A DNA stretch of 64,000 nt from Nitrospinales bacterium. GTDB taxonomy: Bacteria; Nitrospinota; Nitrospinia; Nitrospinales; VA-1. Each line of letters opens with the position of its first letter. Positions within the stretch are counted from its first letter, which is position 1. The stretch lies in contig OZ253582.1 of NCBI GenBank assembly GCA_965263085.1, forward strand, positions 1,848,385 through 1,912,384. The letters run 5' to 3'. The notes under the pieces were generated by a model, which saw nothing but the letters and a program-made list of their open reading frames with translations, did no database searches and was not told the DNA's origin. Of the stretch, positions 1-26,941 are shown in pieces. The translations under genes and the position numbers were made by a program.

Positions 1-46
1 ATTTTATAAGACCCATCCAACAAGGCTAATTATTTCCAGACAGTAA
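1..46 (+). CDS. 3-prime end of an ORF entering from upstream of the window (by position possibly dndC; only 15 codons visible)
   Basis: The frame is open from base 2 to TAA at 44-46. The TAA overlaps the next ATG (TAATG), which is operon-style coupling to dndD. Confidence 0.3.
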   Translation, partial: FYKTHPTRLIISRQ

Positions 47-2022
47 TGATAATTGACTCCATCGACATAGAAAATTTTGGGGTTTATTTAGGCAAGCAAA
101 CAGTTTTGTTAACACCGCCTTCCCAAAATAAACCGATAATCCTTTTTGGTGGCCAAAATGGAAGAGGTAAAACAACCCTCTTGAATGCCTTGCAACTTGG
201 TTTGTATGGAAAATTAGCCAGTTGTTCTAATAGAGGAAAACTTGGATACGAAGAGTATTTAAAGCGTTCAATCCATAGTTCGGCTGACCCAGCGCAGGGG
301 GCAAGCATAACTATAAGTTTTCGATACTTTACAAATGGAAGAGAAATAAAACATAAAATCATAAGGTCTTGGTTGTCTAACGGTAAAGGAACTAAAGAAG
401 GATTAGAGGTTTTTAAAAATGATAAGTTTGATCGCGTCCTTACAGATCAATGGGTAGAATTTTTTAGAGAATTTCTTCCTCCTAAACTGTCAAACTTATT
501 TTTCTTTGATGGAGAAAAAATAGAAAGTTTTGCGGATCTTGATAATGCCTCAAAATTATTATCTATAGGAATAAACTCACTACTGGGTGTTGATTTAATA
601 GAACAACTGTCCAAAGATTTGGTCGTTCTGGAAAGAAAAAAACAAACACCAAATTTAACCCCAACAGATAAAAAAGAAATAGAAGGGATTGAAAAAGAGA
701 TTAAACAAACCAACCAAAACATTGAATCTAAGAGAAATGAAATAGGAAAATTAAATAATGAGGTAACCCAAGTAAAGAACTCACTGGATAGCCTGCAAGA
801 GAAGTTTAGCCAAGAGGGTGGTGAAATCTACGAAAAAAGACATGAGCTGGAAGCAAGTAAAAATGAATTAAAAAAACAGATCGCTCAACTCGAAGTAGAG
901 TTGATTAGCGTTGCAAAAGGACCTGCGCCACTCTTTTTGTTGGGGAATCTTCTAGATTCAATATCATTGCAAGACAAAAAAGAATTAAGTGATACAAATA
1001 CTGCGGATTTAATAAATATTCTAGGCAAGCGAGATAAAGATATTATTGAACTTTGTAAAAAGGAAAAGGTGTCCCCTGCAATAATTACCAAATTGCAAAA
1101 AAAATTATGTGATGATATTGCGTCAAGAATTCCCAATGAAAGCTCCAAACCATATTTAGACCTAAATATGGATTCAAGGTTAAATTTAAATAACCTTAAT
1201 AATGTTGAATTACCGTCACTAGAAAAATCGATTGAGGCTACATTAAAAAAATATGATGAGGCAACTGAGCTTTTGAATATTAACAAGAAAAAATTAGGAA
1301 GTATTCCTAGTGACCAAGGGATAGCAGGGCTATTAGAAGAAATAAAAAAAATTAAAATAAAAGTAGAAGAAAATACTTTTAAAATAAAAAGAGCAGAAGA
1401 AGAGGCGAGTCGCTTAGACCGACAAAAAATTATTCTTGAAAAAGAATTAGAAAAAAAATATCTATTGTCTTTAGAAGAAAAATTTACTACCGAAGATAAT
1501 GAATTATTCCAAAAAAAATCTAAAACGGTAAGAGATACGTTGAATGTGTTTCATAAAGAGATATTAAAAAGACATATCGGTAAAATTCAAACCTTAATAC
1601 TGGATAGTTTTAATAAGCTGATAAGTAAAGATTCTTTAATCAAAGATTTTATTATTGATGTTAATGATTTTGGCATTACTTTGCAGGATTCAGGGGGAAG
1701 AACTATTTTACCAGAACGTCTTTCAGCTGGGGAAAGGCAGCTACTTGCGGTTTCAATGTTATGGGGATTAGCACGTGCATCAGGCCGAGCCCTTCCATCG
1801 GTCATTGATACACCCCTTGGAAGACTCGATTCTTCCCACCGCAAAAATATTGTTGAAAAATATTTTCCATTTTCGAGTCACCAAGTATTTTTATTGTCAA
1901 CAGACGAGGAAGTAGACCGAGAGCACTTTGAAAAATTAAAACCATGGATAGGCCATTCATATATATTAAATTTTGATGAATCAACAAATGCAACTAAAAT
2001 TGAAAAAGGATATTTTTGGTAA
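46..2022 (+). CDS. dndD: DNA phosphorothioation (sulfur modification) protein DndD, SMC/ABC-like ATPase
   Basis: 658 aa. It has Walker A GQNGRGKT, a long K/E-rich coiled-coil middle, an LSAGERQ signature and SVIDTPLGRLD Walker B. A DndE-like ORF overlaps its stop. Confidence 0.85.
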   Translation: MIIDSIDIENFGVYLGKQTVLLTPPSQNKPIILFGGQNGRGKTTLLNALQLGLYGKLASCSNRGKLGYEEYLKRSIHSSADPAQGASITISFRYFTNGREIKHKIIRSWLSNGKGTKEGLEVFKNDKFDRVLTDQWVEFFREFLPPKLSNLFFFDGEKIESFADLDNASKLLSIGINSLLGVDLIEQLSKDLVVLERKKQTPNLTPTDKKEIEGIEKEIKQTNQNIESKRNEIGKLNNEVTQVKNSLDSLQEKFSQEGGEIYEKRHELEASKNELKKQIAQLEVELISVAKGPAPLFLLGNLLDSISLQDKKELSDTNTADLINILGKRDKDIIELCKKEKVSPAIITKLQKKLCDDIASRIPNESSKPYLDLNMDSRLNLNNLNNVELPSLEKSIEATLKKYDEATELLNINKKKLGSIPSDQGIAGLLEEIKKIKIKVEENTFKIKRAEEEASRLDRQKIILEKELEKKYLLSLEEKFTTEDNELFQKKSKTVRDTLNVFHKEILKRHIGKIQTLILDSFNKLISKDSLIKDFIIDVNDFGITLQDSGGRTILPERLSAGERQLLAVSMLWGLARASGRALPSVIDTPLGRLDSSHRKNIVEKYFPFSSHQVFLLSTDEEVDREHFEKLKPWIGHSYILNFDESTNATKIEKGYFW

Positions 2023-2027
2023 TTGCG

Positions 2028-2396
2028 ATGATAGACCATGTACGATTATCACAGCAAGCTAAGGATCAGCTAGCGCAGTTAAAAAGAAAAACAAAACTTA
2101 CTCATTTTAATGAAATATGTCGGTGGGCATTTTGTCTTTCCTTAGCTGAGTCCTCTGCCCCATCAGTGAAGAACTTTAGAAATGATAACCCTCTTGAAAT
2201 GTCTTGGCGAGTGTTTGGAGGTAAATATCAGGATATTTACTTGGCATTACTCAAGCAAAGGTGTGTCAACGATGGCCTCGCTCTTGACTCAGAAACCTTA
2301 GCTGAACAACTTAAGCTCCACCTTCACCGAGGAATAGGATATTTAGCCGCAGATACCGAACTAAAAAATATATCGCACCTATTGAAAAAATATTGA
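2028..2396 (+). CDS. dndE: DNA phosphorothioation protein DndE
   Basis: The frame is open from 2016 (TTG, overlapping the dndD stop). The first ATG at 2028 gives 122 aa starting MIDHVRLSQQAKDQLAQLKRKT. Size, position and sequence match DndE as I remember it. Confidence 0.7.
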   Translation: MIDHVRLSQQAKDQLAQLKRKTKLTHFNEICRWAFCLSLAESSAPSVKNFRNDNPLEMSWRVFGGKYQDIYLALLKQRCVNDGLALDSETLAEQLKLHLHRGIGYLAADTELKNISHLLKKY

Positions 2397-2431
2397 CTGG
2401 TTCCAATTAGAAAAATTTATCTAGTTTGTGT

Positions 2432-2893
2432 TTAACGGACTAAATTGGTTATATCATCTAGGATGGATTGGTTTGAATTATCATTTTGCTCAAGCACAAG
2501 ATCTAATAATGATTCTCGCCCATCACCTGGCTTTTCATGGATCTTATTTTTAATTAATTCTAAGCCTCCGCAGGCATATTCTTCGAAGATTTTAATTTTT
2601 TCTTCCTCTCGTTTTTCTCCCATTATGTCTGCACTTTTTGTTGAGGCAATACCGATGTAGTTAAAAATGACGAAATCATAGTCACCTTTAAAAATATGAA
2701 CCCCAACTGGTTCAGATGACTTATCAAATGGAACCCTTTTGTTAGATTTAAATCCCAGACAAGCTGAAAAAACAAGAGCGTCTTTGTAAGTTAAAAATAT
2801 ATTTTTATTCTTGTCCTTATTTTGACAAAGCTCAAGAAGCATTTCTTCATATTCATCGGGACGTCTTACATCGTTAACCATAAAAACCCTCAT
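2432..2893 (-). CDS. Small dnd-linked protein of unknown function (resembles the family named dnd system-associated protein 4; assignment from memory)
   Basis: 153-aa ORF. Its start (ATG at 2893 or 2881) overlaps the stop (2874-2876) of the upstream ATPase gene. Confidence 0.6.
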   Translation of the reverse strand: MRVFMVNDVRRPDEYEEMLLELCQNKDKNKNIFLTYKDALVFSACLGFKSNKRVPFDKSSEPVGVHIFKGDYDFVIFNYIGIASTKSADIMGEKREEEKIKIFEEYACGGLELIKNKIHEKPGDGRESLLDLVLEQNDNSNQSILDDITNLVR

Positions 2894-4898
2894 TTATCAA
2901 AGTATATTCATAGCGGTCACTTTTTTTAACGCGTTCATTTGGTACATCTGGGCCTGGAGCATGGTAGACCAACGAAAACTCTTTGCCCATTCTCGGGCGA
3001 ATTTTATTTTCGATTTCACCGGACCAATGCGAATCAGACACCATGAGAACTACTTGTTCTGACATGCTAGGTATATATTCTGCAATTTTCTCTCTATATT
3101 CTGGGTCGAGAGGTCCATATGCTGAATCCATTACAATAGGGTATATTCCGCCCTTGAAGTAATAGTTTTTATCGCCTCGCTCTTTTGCCATCTGAACAAT
3201 GCTGGCAATAAAAGATAAGCTGGTGATTTGATTTTCGCCTGTAGACTTTTCATGTACCACCGTTTCGTGTTCTCCGACTTTTTTATAAATATCTAGAGTA
3301 TATTCATTGCTAATTTTAGCCCAATAATCTTTGCGGATAATTTTTTTAAATGTGTCATTCACTTTTCTAGATAATTTTTCGCGGACTTCACTGCCTAATG
3401 AGGTATACCATGACCCGATAAGGCCATATGTTTCTTCAGCAATAAAAATTCTACCTTGAGCTAATTTAACTTGCTCGTTTTGTGCGCTCAACTCTTCTCT
3501 TCGTTTTTTAAGGGTTGCGAGGTCTTTGTCTAATCCCTGTTTGGTTGCTTGTAGTGCTCCTTTTTCTAAAGTAGCACTGTCAATATCTTCATTAAGCTTC
3601 CCTCGTTTAGCTTCTAATCTCTGAACAGATTCTGAGTCAATCTTCCCAATTTTACTATTGATTTCATCAAGCTTACCGCTCATTGATTCAATTTTTTTCT
3701 CCATTTCTGTTCTTTTCAATTGGTCTGTCCGTAATCTATCGAATAGATCTTTTCGAGCTTGTTTTATAGGTAAAATTGCTCCAGAAGCGGTAATAAAAGA
3801 ACCCTCAATATCTTTGCCAGTAGTTGATTTTTTAAATTTAAGAACTTCATTAAAGGGTTGACTGCCTTCACTAAGTGCCCTTCCACAGATACATTGATTG
3901 GCTGCTAATAAATCATCTATAAATTGCTCTTTAACTTTAAACGGCAATTCTCCTTTTTTCCTTTTATCATCCAAAAAAGATTCACATGTATTAACCAATT
4001 CTTCAGTAAACGCTAAAAATCCAAAGCGGCTAATATAATCTCTTCGTTCTTTAATTAAAGAATCTTTGCTGGTAGAAGTAGCTGAAATTTCACCTTCTAA
4101 TTCGTTGCGTTTTGCTTGCAGCTCGGTTGAAGCCTTAGTGTCCGACAATTTTTTGTCAACAAGAGACAATTCCTCTCTAAATTGATTAATATTATTAGAC
4201 AAAAGCTTTAAATTTTTTTTACATTCATCTAATGAATCTTCCTTCTGGCTTTCATCTTCAGCCACTTGGCTTAAGTCACCCGTTGATAAATCTCTAAGTT
4301 CTTTTTTGAGAGTTTTAATTACAGGCTTTAAGTGTTCATATGCGCGATCGACAATCTGCAAACCCATTAAATTTTTAATAGCTATCTGTATATCGCTGCT
4401 TGAGTTTTTACGGGCTAGTTTTTCTATTCTTTCACCATTGAAGAAAAAATATGAGTGTAAGTTTTTCGGTAAAATTTGGTAAATATGAGTTTTGGGATTC
4501 TGAGATGTGATATGACCACCATTTGCATCAGTATGATTTAAAGTAAAATCCTCTGATTTGCTTTCATAATTTAGATTCGATTGTTTTATAAAAGTTTGGC
4601 TTCGCTTTGCAATATGTTTTTTATCATCATGCTCAAATATAATCTCAACGCTCATCTCCATTTGTTGGCCTTCCTTGGATTCATCAACAAGTCTTTCATT
4701 GAGAAGCTTCTCATTTTCACTATCAAAGTCTGTGATACCATAAAAACCCCATTTAAAACTATTGAGGATTGTTGTTTTGCCAGAGCCGTTTTCGCCATGT
4801 ATAACGGTTACATTTTGACCTGGATCGTTACTAAAATCTATTTTTTGAGTTCCGTAGAATTGTCGAAAGTTAGAAATTTTCAAAGAAATAAGTTTCAC
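2874..4898 (-). CDS. DndD-like SMC/ABC-type ATPase (second copy of the DndD architecture, outside the modification operon)
   Basis: 674 aa with a GTG start. It has Walker A GENGSGKT, a roughly 350-aa coiled-coil, an STGENQ signature and PIVMDSAYGPLD Walker B. This is the same layout as dndD at 46-2022. Confidence 0.8.
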   Translation of the reverse strand: MKLISLKISNFRQFYGTQKIDFSNDPGQNVTVIHGENGSGKTTILNSFKWGFYGITDFDSENEKLLNERLVDESKEGQQMEMSVEIIFEHDDKKHIAKRSQTFIKQSNLNYESKSEDFTLNHTDANGGHITSQNPKTHIYQILPKNLHSYFFFNGERIEKLARKNSSSDIQIAIKNLMGLQIVDRAYEHLKPVIKTLKKELRDLSTGDLSQVAEDESQKEDSLDECKKNLKLLSNNINQFREELSLVDKKLSDTKASTELQAKRNELEGEISATSTSKDSLIKERRDYISRFGFLAFTEELVNTCESFLDDKRKKGELPFKVKEQFIDDLLAANQCICGRALSEGSQPFNEVLKFKKSTTGKDIEGSFITASGAILPIKQARKDLFDRLRTDQLKRTEMEKKIESMSGKLDEINSKIGKIDSESVQRLEAKRGKLNEDIDSATLEKGALQATKQGLDKDLATLKKRREELSAQNEQVKLAQGRIFIAEETYGLIGSWYTSLGSEVREKLSRKVNDTFKKIIRKDYWAKISNEYTLDIYKKVGEHETVVHEKSTGENQITSLSFIASIVQMAKERGDKNYYFKGGIYPIVMDSAYGPLDPEYREKIAEYIPSMSEQVVLMVSDSHWSGEIENKIRPRMGKEFSLVYHAPGPDVPNERVKKSDRYEYTLINEGFYG

Positions 4899-5074
4899 GT
4901 CTTTATTTCCTCTCTAAATATATCTATTAATTTACCTATTATTTCTTGTTCTTTATTCCGGGGTATATCATTAAAGTGCTGATATTCTTTTTCAACTTCC
5001 AAAATTTTAGTAATAATACCTCTAACTTGGTCTGTTGTTGAAGCAATGACTTGACCTGGTTTTAAATCGTTCAT
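4895..5074 (-). CDS. 59-aa hypothetical protein (below the ORF-track length cutoff)
   Basis: ATG at 5074, TGA at 4895-4897. Hand translation: MNDLKPGQVIASTTDQVRGIITKILEVEKEYQHFNDIPRNKEQEIIGKLIDIFREEIKT. It starts 3 nt after the helicase-gene stop, and its TGA overlaps the GTG of the ATPase gene (GTGA). Confidence 0.5.
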   Translation of the reverse strand: MNDLKPGQVIASTTDQVRGIITKILEVEKEYQHFNDIPRNKEQEIIGKLIDIFREEIKT

Positions 5075-5077
5075 ATT

Positions 5078-7186
5078 TTAATAATCCAATAGATTCAATC
5101 TAGCCTTTATTGCTCGTAGGTTTTCTAAGACCTCACCTTTATTTATACAAATGTTCGCAAACTCATCTACTCTTTTTAATTCATTCTCCATTAACTTCCG
5201 TTCATAGCTAAAGTTTTGATTATTTGCTATGTCAGAGTTTGATTGTAATGGAGGTATCGCCAAAAAATCATAAATCTTTGCCTCTTTCTTACCCCGAGCT
5301 TGCCTCAGCACTCTTCCTCGACGCTGAATAAATTGTCTTGAGTTTGTTGAAGACGCTAAGATATAAGCTGTTTCAGTCCTAGGAACATCGACTCCTTCAT
5401 CTAAGCATTTTATGGCGACTAATACCTGAATTTTTCCTAAGCTAAAATCACTTAACAATTGCTGGCGAATATCATTTGTCTCCTGAGCAGTTATTTTATT
5501 TGCCTTTATTCCTAATTCAACGCCAACCATTTTTAGTATAGCTTCAACCTGTCTTTCACCTTCGTATATCATATCACCACAGTAAATCAAATTAAAATTA
5601 GAATCCAAATCCTTCTGCAGTAGTTCTTTTAGTATCGGGACTTTATTTTCAGCATTTGCAATCAATCGAGCTCTCTTAATCAGCAAGGTTTTTAAAGGTT
5701 TAGAGGTCAAATCATTATTATCATTATTTGAAGTACTTAATCGTGAAATAGAAATAGAAAGACTTCTATATTCATCCATCTCTTCTTCAGTGAGCGGAAC
5801 TTGGATCACGTGATAGTAATATGGACAAAGTGTGCCATCTGCAATGGCATCAGATATTTCATATTTAACAACTGTTTTGCTAAAATAATTTTTTAAGATC
5901 ATGGTACCTTCTTCATCATAAAACCTGTCAGGAGTTGCAGACAATCCAATCCGCCAAATAGCCTTATCAGGTAATAGCTCCTTGATCTCATTTCCACCTA
6001 AGTTATGCATTTCGTCAGCAATAAAAAGAAAATTCCCATTAAAGCTATCTAAAATATTTTGAAATGGTTCTCGGATAAATGTAGCGTTGGTAACAATAAA
6101 AAAAGAAATTGTAGATTGATTTAATTTTAGAGAATGTATACTATTCTTAGCTTTATCAAGCCAATTAGTGTAAGAGTCGTAGCATATTTGCGGATTGAAT
6201 CCAAATCCTTCAGCTTCTGTGTTCCATTGGTCAGCTAAATGTTTATAAGGCACAGCAACAGCTACCATTAAGTTACTATTTTTCGGATAAATAGCACCAT
6301 CTAAAATTCTAACAATCGAACTTAAAGCCGTGACCGTTTTACCCGAACCTGTTGCCATATGAAAAATTCCACGTCCATTATTCTTAAACCACTCATTAAT
6401 AGCCTTTTCTTGATGATCTCGTAACTTATTCTTTTGGTTTAAAAATTTATCTGGTATGCGTGGTGAGTTACCACTATCAGGAGCTTTTATTACTAGCCGA
6501 TAAGGTCGTGTTGTGGATTCAGTGATTTTAATAAATTTTTGGACAGCCTTATCTGTGGGTGTATATATCTCAAGATTTGGATCATTCTTGGACCACATTT
6601 TTTCAAAATCAGATTCTTTCCGATCAACTCTTTCACTTTCGCCAGGTTCCCAACTTCTATAAATATCTAAGACTTCCCAATTGGTATTAGCTGCGCTTGT
6701 TAAGTTGTATGAACCAGTAAATGCGATTTTATTGCCATCAAGATCATTTAGAATTCCAATTTTTGCATGAAAAATTCCACACAAAGCATTTTTTGGTACT
6801 GCTAGTTTAAATTCCAATATCTTATCGTTAATTAACCAACCAATAGTTGTTCTCGTTTCTAACTCGAGGGAAATCTGGAGTTCTTCGATGGATCGAATGG
6901 AAATATTTTCAATAATTCTTTTTTTATCCTCTAAATTTTTAGATTCTGATAGTAGCACCCAATCTTCTTCGTTTAATTGAGGGCTAATTATCCACCTAGA
7001 GTGCCCACCATTTTTAGCAAACATAGCAATTCCTTTGGCAGCGTCCCTTATCCACTTTGAGGAAAAATAACCGACCGCTATATCATAAGAAATAGATGTT
7101 GCTAAAACCGGGTCAAAAAATTCTTTTATAGGATCATTGGATGAGGTGGTTAAGGAAATAGGAATATTTAACTCAAGAAATGACAT
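5078..7186 (-). CDS. PLD-family (HKD) nuclease domain fused to an SF2 DExH helicase; resembles the family named DNA phosphorothioation system restriction enzyme
   Basis: 702 aa. HKD motif FHAKIGILNDLDGNKIAFTGSYNLT; helicase motif I MATGSGKT, II DEMH, III LSATP, VI QRRGRVLRQ. Confidence 0.8.
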   Translation of the reverse strand: MSFLELNIPISLTTSSNDPIKEFFDPVLATSISYDIAVGYFSSKWIRDAAKGIAMFAKNGGHSRWIISPQLNEEDWVLLSESKNLEDKKRIIENISIRSIEELQISLELETRTTIGWLINDKILEFKLAVPKNALCGIFHAKIGILNDLDGNKIAFTGSYNLTSAANTNWEVLDIYRSWEPGESERVDRKESDFEKMWSKNDPNLEIYTPTDKAVQKFIKITESTTRPYRLVIKAPDSGNSPRIPDKFLNQKNKLRDHQEKAINEWFKNNGRGIFHMATGSGKTVTALSSIVRILDGAIYPKNSNLMVAVAVPYKHLADQWNTEAEGFGFNPQICYDSYTNWLDKAKNSIHSLKLNQSTISFFIVTNATFIREPFQNILDSFNGNFLFIADEMHNLGGNEIKELLPDKAIWRIGLSATPDRFYDEEGTMILKNYFSKTVVKYEISDAIADGTLCPYYYHVIQVPLTEEEMDEYRSLSISISRLSTSNNDNNDLTSKPLKTLLIKRARLIANAENKVPILKELLQKDLDSNFNLIYCGDMIYEGERQVEAILKMVGVELGIKANKITAQETNDIRQQLLSDFSLGKIQVLVAIKCLDEGVDVPRTETAYILASSTNSRQFIQRRGRVLRQARGKKEAKIYDFLAIPPLQSNSDIANNQNFSYERKLMENELKRVDEFANICINKGEVLENLRAIKARLNLLDY

Positions 7187-7187
7187 A

Positions 7188-9587
7188 TTAAAAATTAAAT
7201 TCCCTTAGAATTTTATTAAGTTCGCTATTTTTGGAAACGATAGAATACGATTTATCATTCACCTGAAGGTTAAACCTAGGATCCATCTTGAAATATTTTT
7301 CAAATAAATTTCTATCAGGTTTTCTTGTCAAGGTATTTTTAATATTTTCTATGATAGCCTTAATGGCTTTTACGCTAGTTCCTTCTCCGAGAGCATTTTT
7401 AATAACTTTGTCATACAGGCGAAGGTTATTAGAAATTGTATCATTTTGGCAAATACCATTATTTAATTTAATAGCTGTTAATGAACTTAATATAGATCTT
7501 ATTACACAGGGATTTAGATTGAAAGAACTTACGTTATTAACTTTTTCAATGATCAACTGAAAGCTTTGAGGCCCACTAAGTAGAATTATTTGTATCTGCA
7601 AAACAAAGTCTTCATAGTCGTTTTCTGAAGCAAATACACCACAAAGTAAATCGTATTTGTCATTATCCACCTCAATTATGTTTTTGCTTTTTAGTATTGT
7701 TCTTTTTATTGTGTCATTAGCTAAAAACCTGGTTTTTAAAAATTCATTATGGATTTTCTTCAAGGTGGCAGGTCTGTTTCTTACAAGAAAGTCGATTATT
7801 TCTTCCTCTATAAATTTAAAAGATTTTTCCTTAAATGTTTTTAAGCCAACCATAAATCCTGGCCTAGTTAAAAATCGTTTATCATCTTGAACAATGCCAT
7901 GTAGCATGTGGCGGTTAAATTCCTGATCCCACTCTTTTGGATAATTGTTAAATAAATCTTCAAAAATAACTTTATTGCTCATAAATTTATTTTTATCCAT
8001 TAAGTAGTGATAAGTCTCATCTCTTATTTTTGCAATATTAGATTCCGAAAATTTTAAATTTTCATATGTATTATAGGTTCCAATATCAACAACTAATGTT
8101 TCTTCTAATCTTCCTAGTGTCGTGCTAACTAAGCGCTGAGAAATACTGCTATTAAATAATTTATTAAATATTCTCGTTGCTTCGGAAATATGCAAAGGTC
8201 TTTTTTCTTTTCTAAACATAAAAATATACTTTGCAACTAAAGGAATATTCCCACTTTCGAGCAGACCTTTTTGAAACCGGACTCCATATTTATTTTTTAG
8301 ATAGTTGGTTACAAAAAAAGGTGGGATATCTTGAGTTCGAGTGAGAATGTTTTTTAATGAAATAGGCCAATCCGAAGAAAAAAATTCTTTTCGTATTTTC
8401 GTTTTCCAGGTTTGTTTGGTTTCGTGTTCTGGTTCAATAAAAATATAACTATTGTCGACAGCAACATTTTCGAGATTTTTATTAATTGACTCTTTGTGAA
8501 GGTAAATAAAAATACGAAAATCCTTAACACCACATGAAAAACTTGTTGCTATATCTTTGATTTCAAGACCCCCACCTTTTTCTTTTATTTTGCATATTAT
8601 TTGGTTGTAAATAGTTATCGATTCATCAAGGTATAGTCTTTTATATTTTGATACTATTTTATGATCAATAATTTGCCTTGCTCGTTCACGTGTTATGCCA
8701 TAGCCACGTCCTATTTCTTCTAATGTTAAATTATGTGTTGTGCGCTCTACTAAAATCTTAAAATCTCTTTCTTTGAGAATCTCGGATAATTCATTTACAA
8801 TTTTATTAATATTTGGTTTCTCTGGAGCATCATCGACTTTTAATTCTTTTTTTGAGAATAGATCCTTTTTCTTCTTTACGCTATCAATAAGCTCTTGGAA
8901 TTCGAGAGCTGTTTTTCTTCCAAGATTTGTAACTTTTAATAATTTGTTTATTGCCCTTGGTCCGTCCTCTAAATAATCTCTTACTGTCTTATATGGAAAC
9001 TTCCCATTCGCGCAAATATGTTCTAAGCGAACACTAATATTTTTATTTTTTAGAAGTTCAATTATTGATAAATTCCCTAAACTATCATCTAAAGATGAAA
9101 TGCTTTCGGGACACGGTTCGTTTTTTGTCATTGCTTCGTCAATGTTCCTCTGGAATTCGAGAGCTGTTTTTCTTCCAAGATTTGTAACTTTTAATAATTT
9201 GTTTATTGCCCTTGGTCCGTCCTCTAAATAATCTCTTACTGTCTTATATGGAAACTTCCCATTCGCGCAAATATGTTCTAAGCGAACGCTAATATTTTTA
9301 TTTTTTAGAAATTCAATTATTGATAAATTCTCTAGACCACCATCAAAATTTGATTTTTCTTTTATGCGAGCTTCATATGAGGATGAAATCTGTAGTGTAG
9401 GCTTATTTTCCGGATGTGAATCTTTTTCAGTAATTGCCTCTGCATCTTGGCATGTCAGAGCAATCTTGATATTCTTTGTAGGTTTTCCATCAGAAGTGGC
9501 GGTTGAATGTCCATCCGAATGCGAAACAATTGTGCCGGAGTTTCCTCGGTATTTTTTATCTATTGTAAGATCTGAAAGTAAAGACAC
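7188..9587 (-). CDS. Large multi-HTH DNA-binding protein: two RNAP alpha-CTD-like helix-hairpin-helix modules, a sigma-70 region-4-like HTH and a ~480-aa C-terminal region of unknown function
   Basis: 799 aa. The module NLSIIE(F/L)LKNKNISVRLEHICANGKFPYKTVRDYLEDGPRAINKLLKVTNLGRKTALEFQ occurs twice (residues ~86-146 and ~171-231). LTLEEIGRGYGITRERARQIIDHK lies at ~287-310. The stop is 1 nt before the ATG of the next gene. Confidence 0.7.
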   Translation of the reverse strand: MSLLSDLTIDKKYRGNSGTIVSHSDGHSTATSDGKPTKNIKIALTCQDAEAITEKDSHPENKPTLQISSSYEARIKEKSNFDGGLENLSIIEFLKNKNISVRLEHICANGKFPYKTVRDYLEDGPRAINKLLKVTNLGRKTALEFQRNIDEAMTKNEPCPESISSLDDSLGNLSIIELLKNKNISVRLEHICANGKFPYKTVRDYLEDGPRAINKLLKVTNLGRKTALEFQELIDSVKKKKDLFSKKELKVDDAPEKPNINKIVNELSEILKERDFKILVERTTHNLTLEEIGRGYGITRERARQIIDHKIVSKYKRLYLDESITIYNQIICKIKEKGGGLEIKDIATSFSCGVKDFRIFIYLHKESINKNLENVAVDNSYIFIEPEHETKQTWKTKIRKEFFSSDWPISLKNILTRTQDIPPFFVTNYLKNKYGVRFQKGLLESGNIPLVAKYIFMFRKEKRPLHISEATRIFNKLFNSSISQRLVSTTLGRLEETLVVDIGTYNTYENLKFSESNIAKIRDETYHYLMDKNKFMSNKVIFEDLFNNYPKEWDQEFNRHMLHGIVQDDKRFLTRPGFMVGLKTFKEKSFKFIEEEIIDFLVRNRPATLKKIHNEFLKTRFLANDTIKRTILKSKNIIEVDNDKYDLLCGVFASENDYEDFVLQIQIILLSGPQSFQLIIEKVNNVSSFNLNPCVIRSILSSLTAIKLNNGICQNDTISNNLRLYDKVIKNALGEGTSVKAIKAIIENIKNTLTRKPDRNLFEKYFKMDPRFNLQVNDKSYSIVSKNSELNKILREFNF
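8896..9334. repeat. In-frame tandem duplication inside the 799-aa gene, period 255 bp
   Basis: The 184-bp cores at 8896-9079 and 9151-9334 differ at only 3 positions (9033/9288, 9056/9311, 9076/9331). The ~71-bp linker between them is not duplicated. Confidence 0.95.
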
Positions 9588-9667
9588 TATTTGCTCCAGA
9601 AAAAAATAGTAGATTAATAGCGATGGCCTTATAATAAGTCTTTTGAAAAAAATTGGTATGTTTTTTT

Positions 9668-10176
9668 ATGGAAATTCTTTGCCCCTTCTGCAAGCCTTAT
9701 AAATTTAAACTAATTCTGGAAGGCAATAATTTTCTAATTATTGAAGATTCCCATCCGATTTCCCTAGGACATCTTTTAATAATTACCAAAAGGCATGTAA
9801 AATCTTTTTTTTTAACTACGGACGAAGAAAAGGTCGCTTTATTCAATGGAATAGAGCAAGCAAAAGCTTTAATTGAAAAGGGATCACAAGCCCCAATGGA
9901 TATAATATTGGAATTAATGATGGTGAAGCGGCCGGCCAAACTATTAATCATCTACACATACATGTGATTCCTAGGTATAAAGGTGATTCTCGAGACCCAC
10001 GCGGAGAAATTTGGTGGGTCTTCCCTGATAAAGCCTCATATTGGCAAAATATTGAGGAGACTTTAGATGAGTTGCCAGATGCGTTTGGTAAAGACCTCTT
10101 CGACCAGAAATGCAATGTGGTTTTTCAACATGTTTATGAATCTTATTATGGGCAAGGGCAGAGTGTATATAGTTAG
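9668..10176 (+). pseudogene. HIT-family (histidine triad) hydrolase gene interrupted by a frameshift
   Basis: The N-terminal part (MEILCPFCKP...ALIEKGSQAP) is in one frame. The HIT core (NGYNIGINDGEAAGQTINHLHIHVIPRYKGD) is in the -1 frame, which only opens after a TGA at 9874-9876. The shift must lie in 9877-9897, most simply in the C4 run at 9891-9894. Confidence 0.7.
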
Positions 10177-10242
10177 CTCTATAGATGTAAACAAATCTAT
10201 GAAAATAGATGAAACGAAAATTATTTAGAGAAACCTTACCAA

Positions 10243-11712
10243 ATGCCCTGTGAATTCTTCATAAAGAATGCCCAACGTACACGTTGCCAATTTAATATTG
10301 GAGAAGGGTCATTGATTTCTCTATCTGATGGGAGGAGGGCTTGTCAATTTCATGCTCCACTACAAGATACCAATGGAAATGGAACAGAAAAGGCAAAATG
10401 GAATGAGGGCGGGAACAAGAATTTTAATGGTGAAGTTGGTAATCAAATCCGGAACGCTGGTAGAAAGAAAGTAGACCTATCTGGTGTTGTTTTTCCAGTG
10501 GAAATTAAGTTTTCCGATTGCGAATGTAGGCCAGATTTTGAGCAAGCCACATTTCATAAAGCGGTGGTTTTCCGAGGTGTCTCTTTTCCTGAAGAAAGTT
10601 CATTCAAGAAAACGAATTTTTTGGATGCGGTAGATTTTCAATATTCAAAGTTTGCTTCTACAACAAGTTTTGTCTCAGCTAAATTTAGCGGGGCATCCAA
10701 TTTCTCAAATACCGTATTTACAAAAGATGCGGATTTCACTGGATTGAAATTTAAAAATAAAACCTCATTTACTGAGACAACCTTCGAAGATAAAGCTACT
10801 TTTGAAAAGACGGTATTTGCGAAAGAAGCATCATTTGACCGCACTAAATTTATTGGTGATGCTGATTTTGTCGGGTCACAATTCAACTCCGAAGTTGACT
10901 TTGCAAATACAATATTCACAAAGAATGCAAATTTCTTCAATACGGTATTTAAAGGGTCTTTAAAGTTTACAGAGGTTCAATTTGAGGGACCTGCGAATTT
11001 TAACGTAGATGATGAGGGTCTTCCTTCATCTTTTCCAGAATTAGATTTTTCAAACTCAACATTCAAAGACTCCGTTTCATTCATCAATAGAAAATTTTTA
11101 ACAACCTCCAATTTTGATGAATGCGTGTTTTTTGTCGCACCTGAATTTCAAGGTTGCACACTCCATCAAGACACCAAGTTTCCTCAGGGCAGAAACTTCA
11201 AAGATCATAGCCCTGACGCCGCTCCCGCCTACAGAACTCTGAAGTTGGACATGGAAAATAGCCGTGCTCGTCAGGAAGAGGCTATGTTTTATGCTTTAGA
11301 GCAAAAATGTCAAGCGGCTGATTCCAAAACGGACTGCGTGGTGAAACGTTTTTCTCGCCTTTACGAACTAACCTCTAATTATGGGCAGAGTCTTGGGCGG
11401 CCTGTTGCTTCGATGTCAGGAGTTTCCGTGTCATTTTTCCTAATATATCTATTAATGGCTACAGGATTTTCTTGGAAAACTTTAGCTTCCATAGAATTTT
11501 CTTGGAAAACTTTAGGCCCCACTATTGGGTTCACTATCGAGCAGTCTGTAAGTCCATTTAAGGTTTGGAGGCTACCTGTTTCACCTGAATGGTTATCTAG
11601 TGGTGTTGATTTGGTTGTACTTAAAATTATTGCTACCCTACACTCGTCACTCTTCTTAGTTTTTTTTGGTCTATTCATTTTAGTTCTGCGTTGGAGATTT
11701 AAAAGAGGGTGA
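10243..11712 (+). CDS. Pentapeptide-repeat protein with a Cys-containing N-terminus and two C-terminal transmembrane segments
   Basis: 489 aa. It carries ~200 aa of F-rich pentads (ATFHKAVVFRGVSFPEESSFKKTNFLDAVDF...). The C-terminal hydrophobic stretches are VSVSFFLIYLLMATGF and SSLFLVFFGLFILVL. Confidence 0.8.
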   Translation: MPCEFFIKNAQRTRCQFNIGEGSLISLSDGRRACQFHAPLQDTNGNGTEKAKWNEGGNKNFNGEVGNQIRNAGRKKVDLSGVVFPVEIKFSDCECRPDFEQATFHKAVVFRGVSFPEESSFKKTNFLDAVDFQYSKFASTTSFVSAKFSGASNFSNTVFTKDADFTGLKFKNKTSFTETTFEDKATFEKTVFAKEASFDRTKFIGDADFVGSQFNSEVDFANTIFTKNANFFNTVFKGSLKFTEVQFEGPANFNVDDEGLPSSFPELDFSNSTFKDSVSFINRKFLTTSNFDECVFFVAPEFQGCTLHQDTKFPQGRNFKDHSPDAAPAYRTLKLDMENSRARQEEAMFYALEQKCQAADSKTDCVVKRFSRLYELTSNYGQSLGRPVASMSGVSVSFFLIYLLMATGFSWKTLASIEFSWKTLGPTIGFTIEQSVSPFKVWRLPVSPEWLSSGVDLVVLKIIATLHSSLFLVFFGLFILVLRWRFKRG

Positions 11713-11756
11713 ACATGCCTAATTCAAATGAATATATCTACCACGGAACAATTTAT

Positions 11757-11831
11757 AGGCTGTTAGCTCAACGGGCAGAGCACTGACTCTTAATCAGTAG
11801 GTCGAAGGTTCGATTTCTTCACGGCTTACCA
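11757..11831 (+). tRNA. tRNA-Lys(CUU)-like gene with non-canonical features (possibly degenerate)
   Basis: Hand-folded cloverleaf: acceptor AGGCTGT/ACGGCTT, D arm GCTC-AACGGGCA-GAGC, anticodon arm ACTGA-CTCTTAA-TCAGT, T arm GAAGG-TTCGATT-TCTTC, encoded CCA. Oddities are A1-T72, two G-T pairs in the acceptor stem, G53-T61 and one nucleotide missing at the D/anticodon junction. Confidence 0.55.
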
Positions 11832-12083
11832 AATTTTGGAAATTATCTGAATAAGTTTTTTTCAGTCTATTTCATTCCCTTTTATTCCTGGATAACCCCT
11901 ATAATATTTCCCCGTGAGGGCTTGCATTCATCCAGGAACTCAAGAAATTGTTGGAACGTCTGCCATCGACCCAAAGCAGGCATTCTTATGAAGAATAAAA
12001 AATGGGCTTACTGAGATGGTGCTAAGCTGGCTACCGTTTCTTTCAAAGCTTAACTGTACGATTTTTGGACCGACTCAACTAAC

Positions 12084-13964
12084 ATGGCAAGTCTAATTCC
12101 CTCTCTTAATAGTTGCGTTAAACGAATGCAATCGGGCGAGAAGCGTTTCGCTTGGCGCATAGAGAGCCATTTGGAGGACGACTACCTCTGCTGGTACGAT
12201 TTGCCTGTCGGCAAAAGACAGCGATATTTCGACTTCATTATCCTGCATCCGGCACGTGGTCTGTTGTTGCTGGAGGTGAAGGACTGGAAGCTGGATACCA
12301 TCCAGAAGATAGATAAGGCGACTGCAACTATCATCATCCCGCAGGGCGTCAAAACCGAAGTCAACCCTCTGGAACAGGCACGTCAATGCACCAATCAACT
12401 GATACAACAGCTGGAGAAGGACCCTCAATTGGTCCACCAAACAGGACGTTATAAGGGCCACGTGGTTTTTCCATACGGTTATGGGGTGGTATTGAGCAAT
12501 ATTACCCGTAGGCAGTTTGAATCTACTGACTTGGGAGAAGTGTTACCTGAGCACCAAGTTATCTGTAAGGATGAAATGGTTGAAAGCGTGGAGCCAGAGA
12601 TCTTTCAAGAGCGCTTATGGAACATGTTCAACGTCCAGTTTTCGCATCCTCTTACCCTACCGCAGATTGATCGTATCCGTTGGCACATGTTTCCCGAAGT
12701 TAGAATCAATACAGACGATCAGGGCAATCTTTTTTCAGAGGAGCCAGAAGAGGAGGATATAGAAGAGCTGCTACCTGACATTATAAAGGTCATGGATAGG
12801 CAGCAGGAAATGCTGGCACGCAGTCTTGGGGAAGGACACCGGGTCATCCATGGGGTGGCCGGTTCTGGCAAAACCTTGATCCTGGGTTATCGCTGTCTCT
12901 ACCTCGCCAAGATGCTGAACAAACCAATTCTTGTCCTCTGCTACAACATAACACTGGCCGCTAGGTTGCGCGAACTGATTGCTGGGCGAGGTCTTGGTGA
13001 TAAGGTCAGCGTCTATCACTTCCATGACTGGTGCGGTGAACAGCTACGCACCTACCATATTGATCGACCACAACAGCGGGGCGACAAGTATTTTGACCGG
13101 CTTGTTGAGACGGTCATTGCTGCAGCGGAGAAGGGTGAGATACCAAAATGTCAGTATGGCGCAGTAATGATCGACGAAGGCCATGACTTTAAGCCTGAAT
13201 GGCTGGAGCTTGTGGTAAGCATGGTTGATTCCAAGACCAATTCCCTACTGTTGCTTTATGACGATGCACAGTCGATCTACAGCAAGAAGAACCAGCTCGA
13301 CTTCAGCTTATCTAGTGTCGGAGTTCAGGCAAAGGGCCGGACAACTATACTAAAATTGAATTATCGGAATACCAAAGAAATTCTTGGTTTCGCTTACCAG
13401 TTTGTCCGCAGATACCTTAATCTAGATGCTAAGGGCGAGGATCATGTGCCGTTGGTTGAGCCTGAGGCGGCGGCGGGGCGTCATGGACCTGCACCCGTAG
13501 TAAAGACTTTTAACTCTTATGAAGAGGAAGTAGGCTATATCGCTCGTACCTTCAAGCGAATGCATGACGAACAGGGGATTCCCTGGTCCGATATGTGCGT
13601 AATATATTGGAATAACTGGATGGGAGAAAAACTGCATACCCAATTAACGTCCATAGGTGTTCCCTGTCAATGGCTCAGGGATTCAAAGGAGAAAAAGCTG
13701 TTTAAGTCCTCGGCTGACAGCGTGAAGTTAATGACAATGCACAGCAGTAAGGGTTTAGAATTCCCCATTGTTGCGGTATCAGGGATAGGGAATATGCCTG
13801 CTGACGGACAGGACCCAGTCTCAGCGGCCAAAGTGCTGTATGTTGCGATGACACGTTCCACAGAAAAACTGTTGCTTACCAGTCATAGAGAGACTGAGTT
13901 TCTTTCCCAATTGAAGCAGGTAGATCATGACCTTTCCACTATAAATTGGACAGTCAAAAAGTAG
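12084..13964 (+). CDS. NERD nuclease-like domain fused to a UvrD/PcrA-type SF1 helicase
   Basis: 626 aa. NERD-like FDFIILHPARGLLLLEVKDWK; Walker A GVAGSGKT; Walker B MIDEGHDF; C-terminal TMHSSKGLEFPIV and LYVAMTRS. Confidence 0.8.
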   Translation: MASLIPSLNSCVKRMQSGEKRFAWRIESHLEDDYLCWYDLPVGKRQRYFDFIILHPARGLLLLEVKDWKLDTIQKIDKATATIIIPQGVKTEVNPLEQARQCTNQLIQQLEKDPQLVHQTGRYKGHVVFPYGYGVVLSNITRRQFESTDLGEVLPEHQVICKDEMVESVEPEIFQERLWNMFNVQFSHPLTLPQIDRIRWHMFPEVRINTDDQGNLFSEEPEEEDIEELLPDIIKVMDRQQEMLARSLGEGHRVIHGVAGSGKTLILGYRCLYLAKMLNKPILVLCYNITLAARLRELIAGRGLGDKVSVYHFHDWCGEQLRTYHIDRPQQRGDKYFDRLVETVIAAAEKGEIPKCQYGAVMIDEGHDFKPEWLELVVSMVDSKTNSLLLLYDDAQSIYSKKNQLDFSLSSVGVQAKGRTTILKLNYRNTKEILGFAYQFVRRYLNLDAKGEDHVPLVEPEAAAGRHGPAPVVKTFNSYEEEVGYIARTFKRMHDEQGIPWSDMCVIYWNNWMGEKLHTQLTSIGVPCQWLRDSKEKKLFKSSADSVKLMTMHSSKGLEFPIVAVSGIGNMPADGQDPVSAAKVLYVAMTRSTEKLLLTSHRETEFLSQLKQVDHDLSTINWTVKK

Positions 13965-14114
13965 AGTTTTTCTGTTAAGATTCGGGTTTAAGGAGGATTC
14001 TATGAAACAGATTCGGTGACGAAGTGATGAAAGTTTTTGCGGTGTAGCTAAGGAAAGTTAGTTAAAGTTTAACGTTTCGTAACTTACTTAATAAATACTT
14101 GGGAGTTTAATCTA

Positions 14115-14354
14115 ATGACTTCAAATGACGATGATACGAGTAGAGAGTTGGAACGCCTCAGGGCAGAAAATGAAGCATTAAAGCAAAAAAAATCAGATAA
14201 CATCACTTTTAAGGTTGGCCAAAAAGGCGGTATGTCGATGTATGGTCTTGGCCGTTTTCCCGTAACTTTATACAAAAGTCAATGGCTCGTACTTTTAGAT
14301 GCCACAGACAAAATCAGAGAGTTTTTAAAAAACCATGACCATGAATTAAAGTAA
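14115..14354 (+). CDS. Hypothetical 79-aa protein (N-terminal coiled-coil, conserved-looking GLGRFPVTLYKSQW core)
   Basis: ORF with GGGAG 8 nt upstream of the ATG. I recognise no family. Confidence 0.5.
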   Translation: MTSNDDDTSRELERLRAENEALKQKKSDNITFKVGQKGGMSMYGLGRFPVTLYKSQWLVLLDATDKIREFLKNHDHELK

Positions 14355-14405
14355 CTCGGTGTTCACCGTTAGGTGTCTTAAAACCAAGGACTTTGAATTG
14401 CTATT

Positions 14406-14421
14406 TGGCATTCCTATTGTC
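14406..14421 (+). promoter_or_regulatory. Weak candidate sigma54 (-24/-12) promoter upstream of ureD
   Basis: TTGGCATTCCTATTGT has the GG-N10 spacing, but the -12 element reads TTGT instead of TTGC. It lies ~85 nt upstream of ureD. Confidence 0.3.
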
Positions 14422-14501
14422 AGAATTTGATTGGAATAACGCCGACTAAATGGGTTTGCGGGCCATGATTTTGATAGCAACCTTTCGCATAGGCGTTCAT
14501 T

Positions 14502-15362
14502 GTGTTTATGCCTCCGGCTAAACTACAGGAAAAAGAATCGGATACAGGATGGAAAGCTCAACTGGACTTGGAGTTTTCCGAGTCTGGCAATAGGACCATA
14601 CTGAGTCATCGCAAACACTATGGCCCTTTGCAGGTGCAAAAACCCTTTTACCCGGAGCTTAACGGAGCTTGCCATGTTTATATACTGCATCCTCCTGGTG
14701 GAGTGGTAGGGGGAGATCGTTTAAATATTTCTGTAGATGTGAATCCGAACGCTCATGCTTTGATCACAACTCCGGCGGCGGGAAAATTTTACCGGAGTGC
14801 GGGGCTAATGGCCATGCAGGAACAGAGGGTTAAAGTAGCATCAGGGGGAATATTGGAATGGTTCCCGTCGGAGAACATCCTGTTCTCGGGCGCCAGGGCG
14901 AAGATTCAAACGAAAATTGAATTGTCCCGCGATAGTCAATTTACCGGCTGGGAAATTTCATGCCTGGGGCGACCGGCTTCGAGTGAAAATTTTAATCGGG
15001 GTGAGTTAGATCAGCGTTTTGAGGTTTGGCGGGATGATAAACCTTTATGGATTGAGCGTCTCAGTTTAAAAGGAGATGGCCCGGCTCTTCGAGCTAAGTG
15101 GGGATTGCAAGGCTTCCCTGTTATTGGCAATATGGTTTGTGCGACCCATAAAACAGAATTAGTCGAGCCATTAAGAAAAATAACAATTCCCTCAAGGGAG
15201 CAAGAATTATTTTCAGTAACCCAAGCGGATGGTATTATCATTTGTTATTTTTTAGGGAATAGTGTGGAGAGAGCCCGGAGTTACTTTGTGAAGGCTTGGA
15301 AAATATTGCGCCAGAAGGTGATCCACCATGAAGCTGTTGAACCACGAATTTGGAGCACTTGA
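14502..15362 (+). CDS. ureD: Urease accessory protein UreD
   Basis: 286 aa (GTG at 14502, or ATG at 14508). YILHPPGGVVGGDRL motif and first position in the ure cluster. Confidence 0.85.
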   Translation: MFMPPAKLQEKESDTGWKAQLDLEFSESGNRTILSHRKHYGPLQVQKPFYPELNGACHVYILHPPGGVVGGDRLNISVDVNPNAHALITTPAAGKFYRSAGLMAMQEQRVKVASGGILEWFPSENILFSGARAKIQTKIELSRDSQFTGWEISCLGRPASSENFNRGELDQRFEVWRDDKPLWIERLSLKGDGPALRAKWGLQGFPVIGNMVCATHKTELVEPLRKITIPSREQELFSVTQADGIIICYFLGNSVERARSYFVKAWKILRQKVIHHEAVEPRIWST

Positions 15363-15424
15363 TATTGCCTGTTGATTGATTTTTATGACTAAGTATGTAG
15401 AAAAAACTGTGAAGAGAGGCAAAA

Positions 15425-15727
15425 ATGGAACTTTCCCCTAGAGAAAAGGATAAATTGATAGTTTTTACCGCTGGATTATTAGCGGAAAGACGGCTAACTC
15501 GCGGAGTGAAGCTCAACTATCCTGAAGCCATCGCTTATATTTCAGCCGCTATTCTGGAAGCCGCACGGGATGGGCAAAGTGTCGCCGATCTGATGAGCTA
15601 CGGAACTACTTTGCTCAAACGCGAACAGGTGATGGAGGGAATTCCAGAAATGATCCATGAAGTACAAGTGGAAGCTACTTTCCCGGATGGCACCAAACTG
15701 GTCACTGTTCACAACCCAATTCCATAA
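15425..15727 (+). CDS. ureA: Urease gamma subunit
   Basis: 100 aa with the typical [11 protein letters not shown]...[14 protein letters not shown] sequence. Confidence 0.95.
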
Positions 15728-15739
15728 ACGGAGAATAAA

Positions 15740-16057
15740 ATGATTCCGGGTGAAGTAAAAGTAAAAGAGGGGAAGATTATTCTCAATGAAAATGGAGAAA
15801 CGATCTGTCTGACTGTTTCCAATTCGGGCGATAGACCGATTCAGGTGGGATCACATTATCATTTTTTTGAAACCAATGGCGCGTTGCAATTCGATCGTGA
15901 AAAAACAAAAGGCTATCGCCTGAATATCCCTGCCGGAACAGCTGTTAGATTTGAGCCGGGACAAACGCGCGAAGTTAAACTGGTCGCTTTTTTAGGCTCC
16001 AGGCATATTTATGGGTTCAACGGAAAAATTATGGGACAGTTGGAAGGAGAAAAATGA
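15740..16057 (+). CDS. ureB: Urease beta subunit
   Basis: 105 aa with an MIPGE start and the SHYHFFE motif. Its stop overlaps the ureC start. Confidence 0.95.
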
Positions 16058-17757: not shown

Positions 17758-17771
17758 CAGAACTCGATTAA

Positions 17772-18230
17772 ATGCTAACCATCATAGAAAAGCTCGGCAC
17801 TCCTGCCACGCCTTCTGTAAGCCTGACTCTTCCCTTTGAAAAAAGACAGAAAAGCCGATTGCGAACTTCTCTGGATGATAATCAGGAAGTGGCATTGATG
17901 CTGGAGCGGGGAAGTGTTTTACGCCATGGTGATTTTTTGCGTGCGGATAATGGATTGATTGTCGAAGTTTGTGCTGCCAACGAAGAAGTTGCCGTCATTT
18001 CTACAAAGGATTCTTTCCTTTTAGCTCGCGCTTGTTATCATCTTGGTAACCGGCATATTCCTCTTCAAATAGGGGACGGCTGGTTAAGAATTCAAAGAGA
18101 TCATGTGCTGGAAGAGATGGTTCAATCGCTGGGGCTTGTTGTAAAGCATGAACTGTCGCCTTTTGAACCAGAAGCGGGTGCCTATAGTGGGCACACCCGT
18201 CATTCGCATTCTCATCACGGCGAAACATAA
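17772..18230 (+). CDS. ureE: Urease accessory protein UreE
   Basis: 152 aa. YHLGNRH motif and a His-rich tail (HTRHSHSHHGET). Confidence 0.9.
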   Translation: MLTIIEKLGTPATPSVSLTLPFEKRQKSRLRTSLDDNQEVALMLERGSVLRHGDFLRADNGLIVEVCAANEEVAVISTKDSFLLARACYHLGNRHIPLQIGDGWLRIQRDHVLEEMVQSLGLVVKHELSPFEPEAGAYSGHTRHSHSHHGET

Positions 18231-18911
18231 ATGAATTCTGATCGGTCTAAAGAAACTTTACGTTTAATGCAATTGTGCAGTCCGATGCTTCCTGTTGGTG
18301 CTTACGCCTATTCCCAGGGTTTGGAATTTGCGGTCTCTTCAGGCTGGATAAAAGATGAGGGTTCTACGTCATTATGGATTCAGGGTCTCTTGGAAAACTC
18401 TTTGACTTATTTAGATGTGCCGTTATTATCCCGCCTGTACAATGCCTGGACGATCCATGATAAAAAAAATGTGTTCTATTGGAATGATTATCTCTTTGCC
18501 AGTCGTGGTTCTAGAGAGTTTCAGGAAGAGGAGCAACAGTTAGCTCATGCGTTAGCTAGATTGTTGGAGGATATGGGTATTTTAGAAGCGGTTGAGTGGA
18601 AGGATAAACCTCGAATCTGCTTCCTGTCGTTATTTTCCCTGGGAGCCGTGCGTTGGAAGATATCTCTTAATGATGCATCCTTGGGATATTTATGGATGTG
18701 GGCTGAAAATCAGGTTCTGGCCGCAATCAAATTGGTACCTCTAGGGCAAACCTGTGGTCAGAAGATGTTATCTTCTTTCATTGAAATTATTCCGGAGCTT
18801 GTTGAAAAAGGTTTATCATTAAAAGATGAAGAGATGGGGTATACCTCTCCGGGTCAGGGTATAGCCAGTGCTCTTCATGAAACTCAATACACCCGATTAT
18901 TTAGATCGTAA
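18231..18911 (+). CDS. ureF: Urease accessory protein UreF
   Basis: 226 aa. [21 protein letters not shown] motif and position in the cluster. Confidence 0.9.
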
Positions 18912-26939: not shown

Positions 26940-26941
26940 GA

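Follow-up and report, generated by a model that had tools for sequence, protein, structure and literature searches.

PbeABCD was described by Xiong et al. in 2019 (PMC6459918) and was re-described as the CxC ABC-ATPase system by the Aravind group in 2024 (PMC10853773). The accessory genes that the latter report gives for CxC systems are methylases and MTaX1, and none of them is sigma-like or resembles the C-terminal domain (CTD) of the RNA polymerase (RNAP) alpha subunit. No DNA degradation was seen in the original study (PMC6459918); cleavage was argued later (PMC10853773). Here we describe a gene, X, in 64,000 nucleotides of DNA from a Nitrospinales bacterium (assembly GCA_965263085.1, contig OZ253582.1, positions 1,848,385 to 1,912,384 of the forward strand), the whole of which we call the window. 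Like the published systems, the window carries PbeA to PbeD, ordered and tightly spaced as is usual, beside dndD and dndE. PbeA, with its HKD nuclease and superfamily 2 (SF2) helicase domains, PbeB, the CxC protein PbeC and PbeD all stand in one operon, which is how PbeABCD is defined. X is the lead gene of this operon and encodes a large protein built from transcription-machinery modules, whose re-use in a defence operon is unusual. X is mentioned neither in PMC10853773 nor in its supplement, and an earlier mention is possible in the first CxC description (Krishnan et al. 2020).

We investigated how X relatives are distributed and what lies beside them. A word-indexed protein search returned 2-3 relatives, and an exhaustive HMMER search raised this to 262 cluster representatives at E ≤ 0.001. 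Among the best 152 of these 262, 134 have the six-winged-helix region described below, while 11 form a sister branch that shares the N-terminal cassette and has a distantly homologous C-terminal region (hhalign probability 96%, E = 3e-9). Loci were located with a 10-sequence core alignment, as an 18-sequence alignment of the C-terminal region was too divergent for that use. The original prediction, which a model had made from the DNA alone, placed X at the head of a nuclease/ATPase operon. That placement holds in the window, where PbeA to PbeD follow directly. It also holds elsewhere: we looked for homologues that act as stand-alone regulators and instead found a PbeA homologue directly 3' of the X-family gene in 24 of 24 loci examined, from several phyla. 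In all 18 loci from reference genomes X is followed by PbeA-PbeB-PbeC-PbeD, often with overlapping gene ends, and at least 11 of the 18 have dnd genes no more than 10 kb away. The hosts of these 18 loci include Rhodobacterales, Sphingomonadales, Nitrosomonas, Geothermobacter, Verrucomicrobiales and Flavobacteriales. Two metagenome contigs, which encode the closest relatives of X, and two roseobacter plasmids have the same X-pbeABCD order. In the window the stop codon of X (7188-7190) and the ATG of pbeA (at 7186) are 1 nt apart. Gene ends that abut or overlap in this way suggest that X and the pbe genes are co-translated.

The cassette is also found joined to enzymes. In P0142 (1380 aa) the alpha-CTD, present in two copies in the query alignment, sigma region 4, an SF2 helicase and a methyltransferase form one chain, and P0135 (889 aa) combines the alpha-CTD, sigma region 4 and a DEAD helicase. 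The cassette is therefore physically tied to SF2-type restriction motors. No fusion of X to PbeA was found among family members. The sister branch precedes a divergent set of PbeA, PbeB, PbeC and PbeD in two Rhizobium plasmids. One of these loci, at 7341-15498 of the Rhizobium leguminosarum plasmid NZ_CP007048.1, has the sister-branch sigma-like protein as leader of the divergent Pbe operon and a gene with a RelA/SpoT domain directly 5' of it. The PbeA homologue there bears the annotation of a 593-aa helicase, only about 90% of which is covered by the match to the PbeA of the window (aa 9-642).

X lies on the minus strand, which the original prediction did not state. Its start codon is a GTG at 9587, with GGAG 6 nt 5' of it. 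As no in-frame methionine precedes residue 153, we accepted the GTG start and with it an N-terminus of 81 residues. From its N-terminus, X consists of a disordered segment, two alpha-CTD-like domains, a sigma-70 region 4, six tandem winged helices and a conserved C-terminal peptide. AlphaFold2 models were made of the full-length protein (91-sequence alignment; mean predicted local distance difference test score, pLDDT, 85.5; predicted template modelling score, pTM, 0.66) and of the C-terminal half (18-sequence alignment; pLDDT 86.4, pTM 0.67). The prediction had named two alpha-CTD-like modules at about residues 86-146 and 171-231, a sigma-70 region 4.2 at about 287-310 and winged-helix segments in the remaining 480 or so residues. 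Profile searches and structure prediction bore out all three parts: alpha-CTD-like modules and a sigma-region-4-like fold are present, and the two peptides quoted as winged helices fall in units 3 and 5 of the six that are modelled. Other members vary at the N-terminus. The closest homologues have a degenerate third alpha-CTD copy there, which X of the window lacks, and others carry Ank domains with GcrA-type helix-turn-helices, Sel1 or a Zn-finger. A fold search of X against viral proteins gave nothing informative.

Pfam Sigma70_r4 (PF04545) matches X at residues 271-307 with 32 bits (cutoff 24.1, E = 9e-8). The match spans profile positions 5-41, including both the 4.1-like and the 4.2-like helices, and the same family is matched in 51 of 51 family members scanned. 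All sequence matches in the PDB are sigma-factor chains over region 4, nearly all of them named as primary sigma (SigA/RpoD/HrdB); in this search TLEEIGRGYGITRERARQI of X was aligned to TLEEVGAYFGVTRERIRQI of sigma. Foldseek likewise paired the model of X with a chimera of sigma-A region 4 and the beta-flap (8d5v_D, probability 1.0). The recognition helix TRERARQI is the form taken in the window by the family-conserved TRERxRQ. R300 and R302 are invariant in the 91 aligned sequences, and T299, E301, R304 and Q305 show conservation of 90% or more. R300, E301, R302, R304 and Q305 correspond to R584, E585, R586, R588 and Q589 of E. coli sigma-70, which are known contacts to -35 DNA. Region 4 is also the most basic module of the family, with a mean net charge of +3.2. 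In the AlphaFold2 model its last helix continues into the first winged helix. Sigma70_r2 and Sigma70_r3 were not matched in X with Pfam or NCBIfam, nor do they appear in the family lists of the 51 scanned members. X was considered as a true sigma factor and rejected, as it has no region 2. Public labels for family members are 'sigma factor-like helix-turn-helix DNA-binding protein', 'YlxM' and 'primary sigma factor'; since sigma region 2 is absent, the last of these is wrong.

The two alpha-CTD-like domains of X are encoded by a 236-nt direct repeat (8863-9098 and 9118-9353, spacing 255, identity 90%), a 255-bp-period duplication that Tandem Repeats Finder did not report. For X alone, Pfam RNA_pol_A_CTD (PF03118) gave a sub-threshold match of 15 bits (cutoff 23.8, E = 0.021). 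Therefore, we built a family profile: repeats were gathered from the 152 X relatives by an iterated hidden Markov model (HMM), and 80 diverse copies were aligned. Of the 44 PDB matches of this profile, 42 are RNAP alpha CTDs, the best at E = 7.6e-6 with the whole domain covered. In addition, PF03118 was matched at E < 0.001 in 23 of the 51 scanned members (best 1e-40). Judged from these matches, the alpha-CTD call is weak for X alone and firm for the family. Positions conserved at 90% or more in the repeat alignment are the S, R, L and N of SVRLxN and the G and E of NxGxKxxxE. When aligned to solved alpha CTDs, conserved positions fall on E. coli R265, N268, G296 and E302, and adjoining K/S positions on K298 and S299. 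In E. coli alpha, R265, N268, G296, K298 and S299 are known contacts to UP-element DNA. The alpha N-terminal domain is not among the Pfam or NCBIfam matches of X, so that these domains sit outside an RpoA context.

Across the 152 relatives most proteins carry two alpha-CTD copies (87 proteins) and some carry 1, 3 or 4. The median identity between copies of one protein is 39% family-wide, and first copies are closer to other first copies than to second copies. These data indicate that the two-copy plan is old. The duplication in the original prediction thus stands as to its two copies and needs refinement as to its age, because the near-identity seen here is recent and lineage-specific and overlies the older architecture. 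In X of the window and its closest relatives, P0003 and P0004, this near-identity appears from the sequences to be a recent re-duplication or gene conversion of the clade.

Beyond region 4, two independent AlphaFold2 runs predicted six consecutive H-H-H-beta-beta units at residues 340-715. Units 3 and 4 are the best conserved, with the motifs ALIVxRGxYxLYENL and GIxQDDxRFxxxRGLMxGL. These motifs resemble HARE-HTH, a likeness that Pfam and PDB sequence searches did not support and that we do not claim. The best Foldseek matches are tandem winged-helix proteins, namely UFL1/DDRGK1, the SelB C-terminus, RPC62, Dcc1 and ScpB, and they concern the fold only. Their probabilities were 0.99-1.0 for the top five with the C-terminal model and 0.95-1.0 for the top four with the full-length model. 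TM-scores were low, as expected of a flexible array. At the sequence level, no Pfam family was matched by the C-terminal region at E < 0.001, either in X or among the families listed for 51 relatives, and a profile of the C-terminal 478 residues found no relative among solved structures. Family-wide the winged helices are mostly acidic or neutral and only unit 3 is mildly basic; for this reason we read the array as a scaffold more readily than as six DNA binders. After a low-confidence linker the protein ends in a family-wide motif, [ST]E[LI]xx[IL]LxEFx[FI], here SELNKILREFNF (residues 786-799; 7191-7232, minus strand). This acidic terminal peptide, with its aromatic last residue, looks like a partner-docking motif.

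We favour, with a probability of about 0.5, the reading that X serves a five-gene form of PbeABCD as a non-catalytic adaptor subunit that targets DNA. What X binds, which partners it holds and how it affects defence we infer from its architecture and position. The N-terminal half would rebuild, in one chain, the part of the RNAP holoenzyme that reads promoter-upstream DNA. Its flexibly tethered alpha-CTDs would bind the A/T-rich minor groove, as at UP elements, and its sigma region 4 a -35-like hexamer. The six-winged-helix scaffold and the C-terminal peptide could then hold the PbeA helicase-nuclease, the PbeC-PbeD pair or both, so that the complex would be loaded onto DNA at promoter-like sites, where phosphorothioate marks would decide between self and foreign DNA. 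We lean towards DNA reading because conservation in both module types is highest at the DNA-contact residues, and because in another lineage the cassette and a helicase-methyltransferase share one chain.

Several observations weigh against this reading. A PbeA gene occurs without X on 27 of 31 PbeA-bearing plasmids, and two such plasmids that were inspected have nothing comparable at the X position. The archaeal Pbe system that was tested also lacks X (PMC6459918). Since most plasmid Pbe operons and the archaeal system do without it, X is dispensable for the core Pbe mechanism, and from this distribution it appears to be an optional fifth subunit of particular Pbe clades. In both alpha-CTD copies of the window protein the N268 equivalent is a histidine, and the domains contain some 9 additional residues and a segment, PFxTVxDYLxAG, that is particular to the family. 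Residue conservation would look alike if the modules had to mimic RNAP. The Ank and Sel1 extensions are protein-binding modules and would suit a sensor, and operon regulators, too, typically stand in lead position.

These points bear on three other readings. X could be a decoy or guard that displays copies of two RNAP surfaces, the alpha CTD and sigma region 4, which are the most frequent targets of phage take-over factors; once bound or modified by one of these factors, X would set free or activate the Pbe nuclease-helicase. The modules are specifically RNAP-derived, with a sigma part closest to primary sigma and the R265-equivalent arginine kept; the N-terminal extensions are variable and include the protein-binding Ank and Sel1; and an alpha-CTD copy number of 1 to 4, with recent re-duplication, is typical of a host-virus interface. 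A release-by-viral-factor logic has moreover been proposed for PbeB by the Aravind group (PMC10853773). However, with their inserted residues, and with many members below the Pfam threshold, the alpha-CTD-like domains do not mimic RNAP closely. Their best-conserved positions are DNA contacts and not known protein-contact patches, the helicase-methyltransferase fusion suits DNA recognition better, and no phage partner is known. We consider this reading unlikely. In a specific form of it, X would be an effigy of the promoter-recognition face of RNAP, to be bound or modified by early phage proteins (AsiA-like or Alt/ModA-like) that otherwise take hold of sigma region 4 or alter the alpha CTD and that would thereby switch on PbeA; this we hold to be more doubtful still.

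As the first gene of its operon, made of promoter-binding modules and winged helices and annotated publicly as a DNA-binding protein with transcription Gene Ontology (GO) terms, X might instead be an autoregulator. It would bind the pbe promoter, the dnd promoter or both through sigma region 4 and the alpha-CTDs and keep a toxic nuclease system repressed until infection. Against this, family members have 700-1300 residues and at least 9 domains, far above the usual defence regulators. The gene is tightly coupled to pbeA (1 nt here, overlap elsewhere), P0142 and P0135 join the cassette to enzymes, and most Pbe operons have neither X nor a substitute at its position. When the operon was scanned for promoters and terminators, the numbers found were no more than chance would give. 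These data make autoregulation decidedly improbable. Sigma region 4 could also tether X to RNAP: by binding the beta-flap tip of the core enzyme it would couple the Pbe machinery to transcribing or initiating polymerase. The presence of both 4.1-like and 4.2-like helices and the structural match to a sigma-4/beta-flap chimera are what would be expected of such a tether. X nevertheless lacks the sigma regions 2 and 3 that would hold it stably on the core, and unlike in sigma the helix past the recognition helix runs into the winged-helix array, which leaves a tether very improbable.

The published accounts of how the Pbe/CxC system acts on foreign DNA differ, and the X subtype has a dedicated subunit made of RNAP promoter-reading modules. 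If X is the DNA-reading adaptor that we favour, promoter-like DNA would be the entry site of the complex, and R102, R187, R300, R302 and the C-terminal EFxF peptide would be targets for mutation. If X is bait, phosphorothioate-based immunity would be linked to the sensing of phage transcription take-over; were the effigy reading true, no earlier defence system would have been shown to use RNAP-derived bait domains as guards of the transcription machinery. Some 150 protein clusters that at present bear sigma-factor or generic helix-turn-helix labels could be re-annotated as Pbe-associated. The alpha-CTD/sigma-4 cassette appears to be a portable module, common to three or more settings in restriction or defence, namely Pbe, Mza and the helicase-methyltransferase fusion.

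Table 1. Coordinates in the window of X, its domains and the adjoining pbe and dnd genes.
Feature	Position	Strand	Evidence
X, whole gene (799 aa)	7188..9587	-	Open reading frame (ORF); GTG start, GGAG Shine-Dalgarno-like site upstream
X, residues 1-81: disordered, S/T/K-rich, unconserved	9345..9587	-	pLDDT 31-38; alignment
X, alpha-CTD-like domain A (aa 86-154), with SVR102 and NLGRKT as equivalents of E. coli R265 and N294-S299	9126..9332	-	
X, alpha-CTD-like domain B (aa 168-239)	8871..9086	-	Core DNA (aa 86-146 vs 171-231) 97.8% identical to domain A; linkers diverged
X, sigma-70 region 4 helix-turn-helix (aa 258-318)	8634..8816	-	Pfam, PDB sequence search, AlphaFold2, Foldseek
X, six tandem winged-helix domains (aa 322-715)	7443..8624	-	AlphaFold2, Foldseek, family alignment
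X, helical tail (aa 720-799)	7191..7430	-	AlphaFold2; family alignment
PbeA: HKD (phospholipase D-like) nuclease and SF2 helicase	5078..7186	-	PADLOC PbeA 758 bits; TIGR04095 553 bits; Pfam PLDc_2, ResIII, Helicase_C
PbeB-like small protein, 59 aa	4895..5074	-	ORF between PbeA and PbeC
PbeC: CxC-type ABC ATPase, CIC zinc-hook motif in ...ANQCICGRAL...	2874..4898	-	PADLOC PbeC 743 bits
PbeD: DNA phosphorothioation-associated protein 4 (cognate DndE)	2432..2893	-	TIGR04062 112 bits, cutoff 74
dndD (46-2022) and dndE (2016-2396)	46..2396	+	TIGR03185 595 bits; TIGR03184 131 bits

The genes around X are listed in Table 1. X itself matched none of the PADLOC models for PbeA to PbeD. The 59-aa ORF between PbeA and PbeC matched no Pfam, NCBIfam or PADLOC model. 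Small ORFs homologous to it occupy the same position in 14 other loci (E 1e-11 to 4e-4), and on this basis we assign it as a PbeB-type protein. With PbeB a separate ORF, X was rejected as a candidate for PbeB. The phosphorothioate modification genes dndD and dndE converge on the pbe operon, and dndC would fall outside the window.

On the other side, a HIT-family gene (9641-10110, plus strand) is divergent from X and is split by a frameshift near 9880-9890; the N-terminal part (...ALIEKG) and the catalytic INHLHIHVIP part are in different frames. Either this is a pseudogene or the split stems from a sequencing error. An intact 129-aa HIT gene stands at the same position beside the two closest X homologues. 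G+C content is 30-37% over the dnd-pbe cluster (window 1-12000) and 43-49% from about 12 kb (12000-20000), a contrast that suggests that the cluster is a horizontally acquired island. Adjoining it is a gene for a NERD nuclease with a UvrD-like helicase (12084-13964, plus strand; PADLOC candidate C3a187, 598 bits), and the two together may form a small defence island. Between them lies a 489-aa pentapeptide-repeat protein (10243-11712, plus strand) with 7 stretches of Pentapeptide_3 and a hydrophobic C-terminal end. The chromosomal surroundings at 14500-27000 (plus strand) encode urease (alpha subunit 16054-17757) and a urea ABC transporter (UrtB 23353-25038).

Compared with known systems, the modules of X are homologous to the RNAP alpha CTD and to region 4 of primary sigma (PDB 3n97, 1lb2, 1ku7), with the DNA-contact residues kept. 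PDB 3n97 occurs in both match lists, as a further entry of the 1lb2_B match for the alpha-CTD and as the top match (3n97_A) for sigma-4. This entry, the alpha CTD with sigma region 4 on UP/-35 DNA, would serve as a structural template. Two alpha-CTDs and one sigma-4 is the stoichiometry of the RNAP holoenzyme, which also points to DNA reading. Unlike RNAP, X is a single polypeptide that lacks the alpha N-terminal domain and sigma regions 1-3, has insertions in its alpha-CTDs and has a sigma-4 that is continuous with winged helices.

Of the proteins that have a name, the one nearest to X is MzaA (NF041931), which leads the anti-phage operon mzaABCDE (PMC9523054) and is, like X, a sigma-region-4 protein in lead position. 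Residues 178-306 of X, that is, the second alpha-CTD and sigma-4, align to positions 571-693 of the 726 in the MzaA model. The cassette is C-terminal in MzaA and N-terminal in X, however, and outside it the two proteins are unlike, as are their partner genes. X was also rejected as an MzaA, with 33.5 bits against a cutoff of 800 bits for NF041931 and 12.5 bits for the PADLOC MzaA model. By description, X is also like DndG/DptG, SspB and the FokI recognition domain (PMC10853773), which are non-catalytic, DNA-handling multi-winged-helix proteins beside nucleases or ATPases linked to phosphorothioate; unlike X, these have three winged helices and no RNAP-derived modules. Finally, PbeABCD/CxC as described consists of four genes, whereas the window and 23 further loci are led by a large fifth gene. 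The four-gene system is known, and going by the accessible descriptions X is an undescribed fifth component that makes these operons a new variant.

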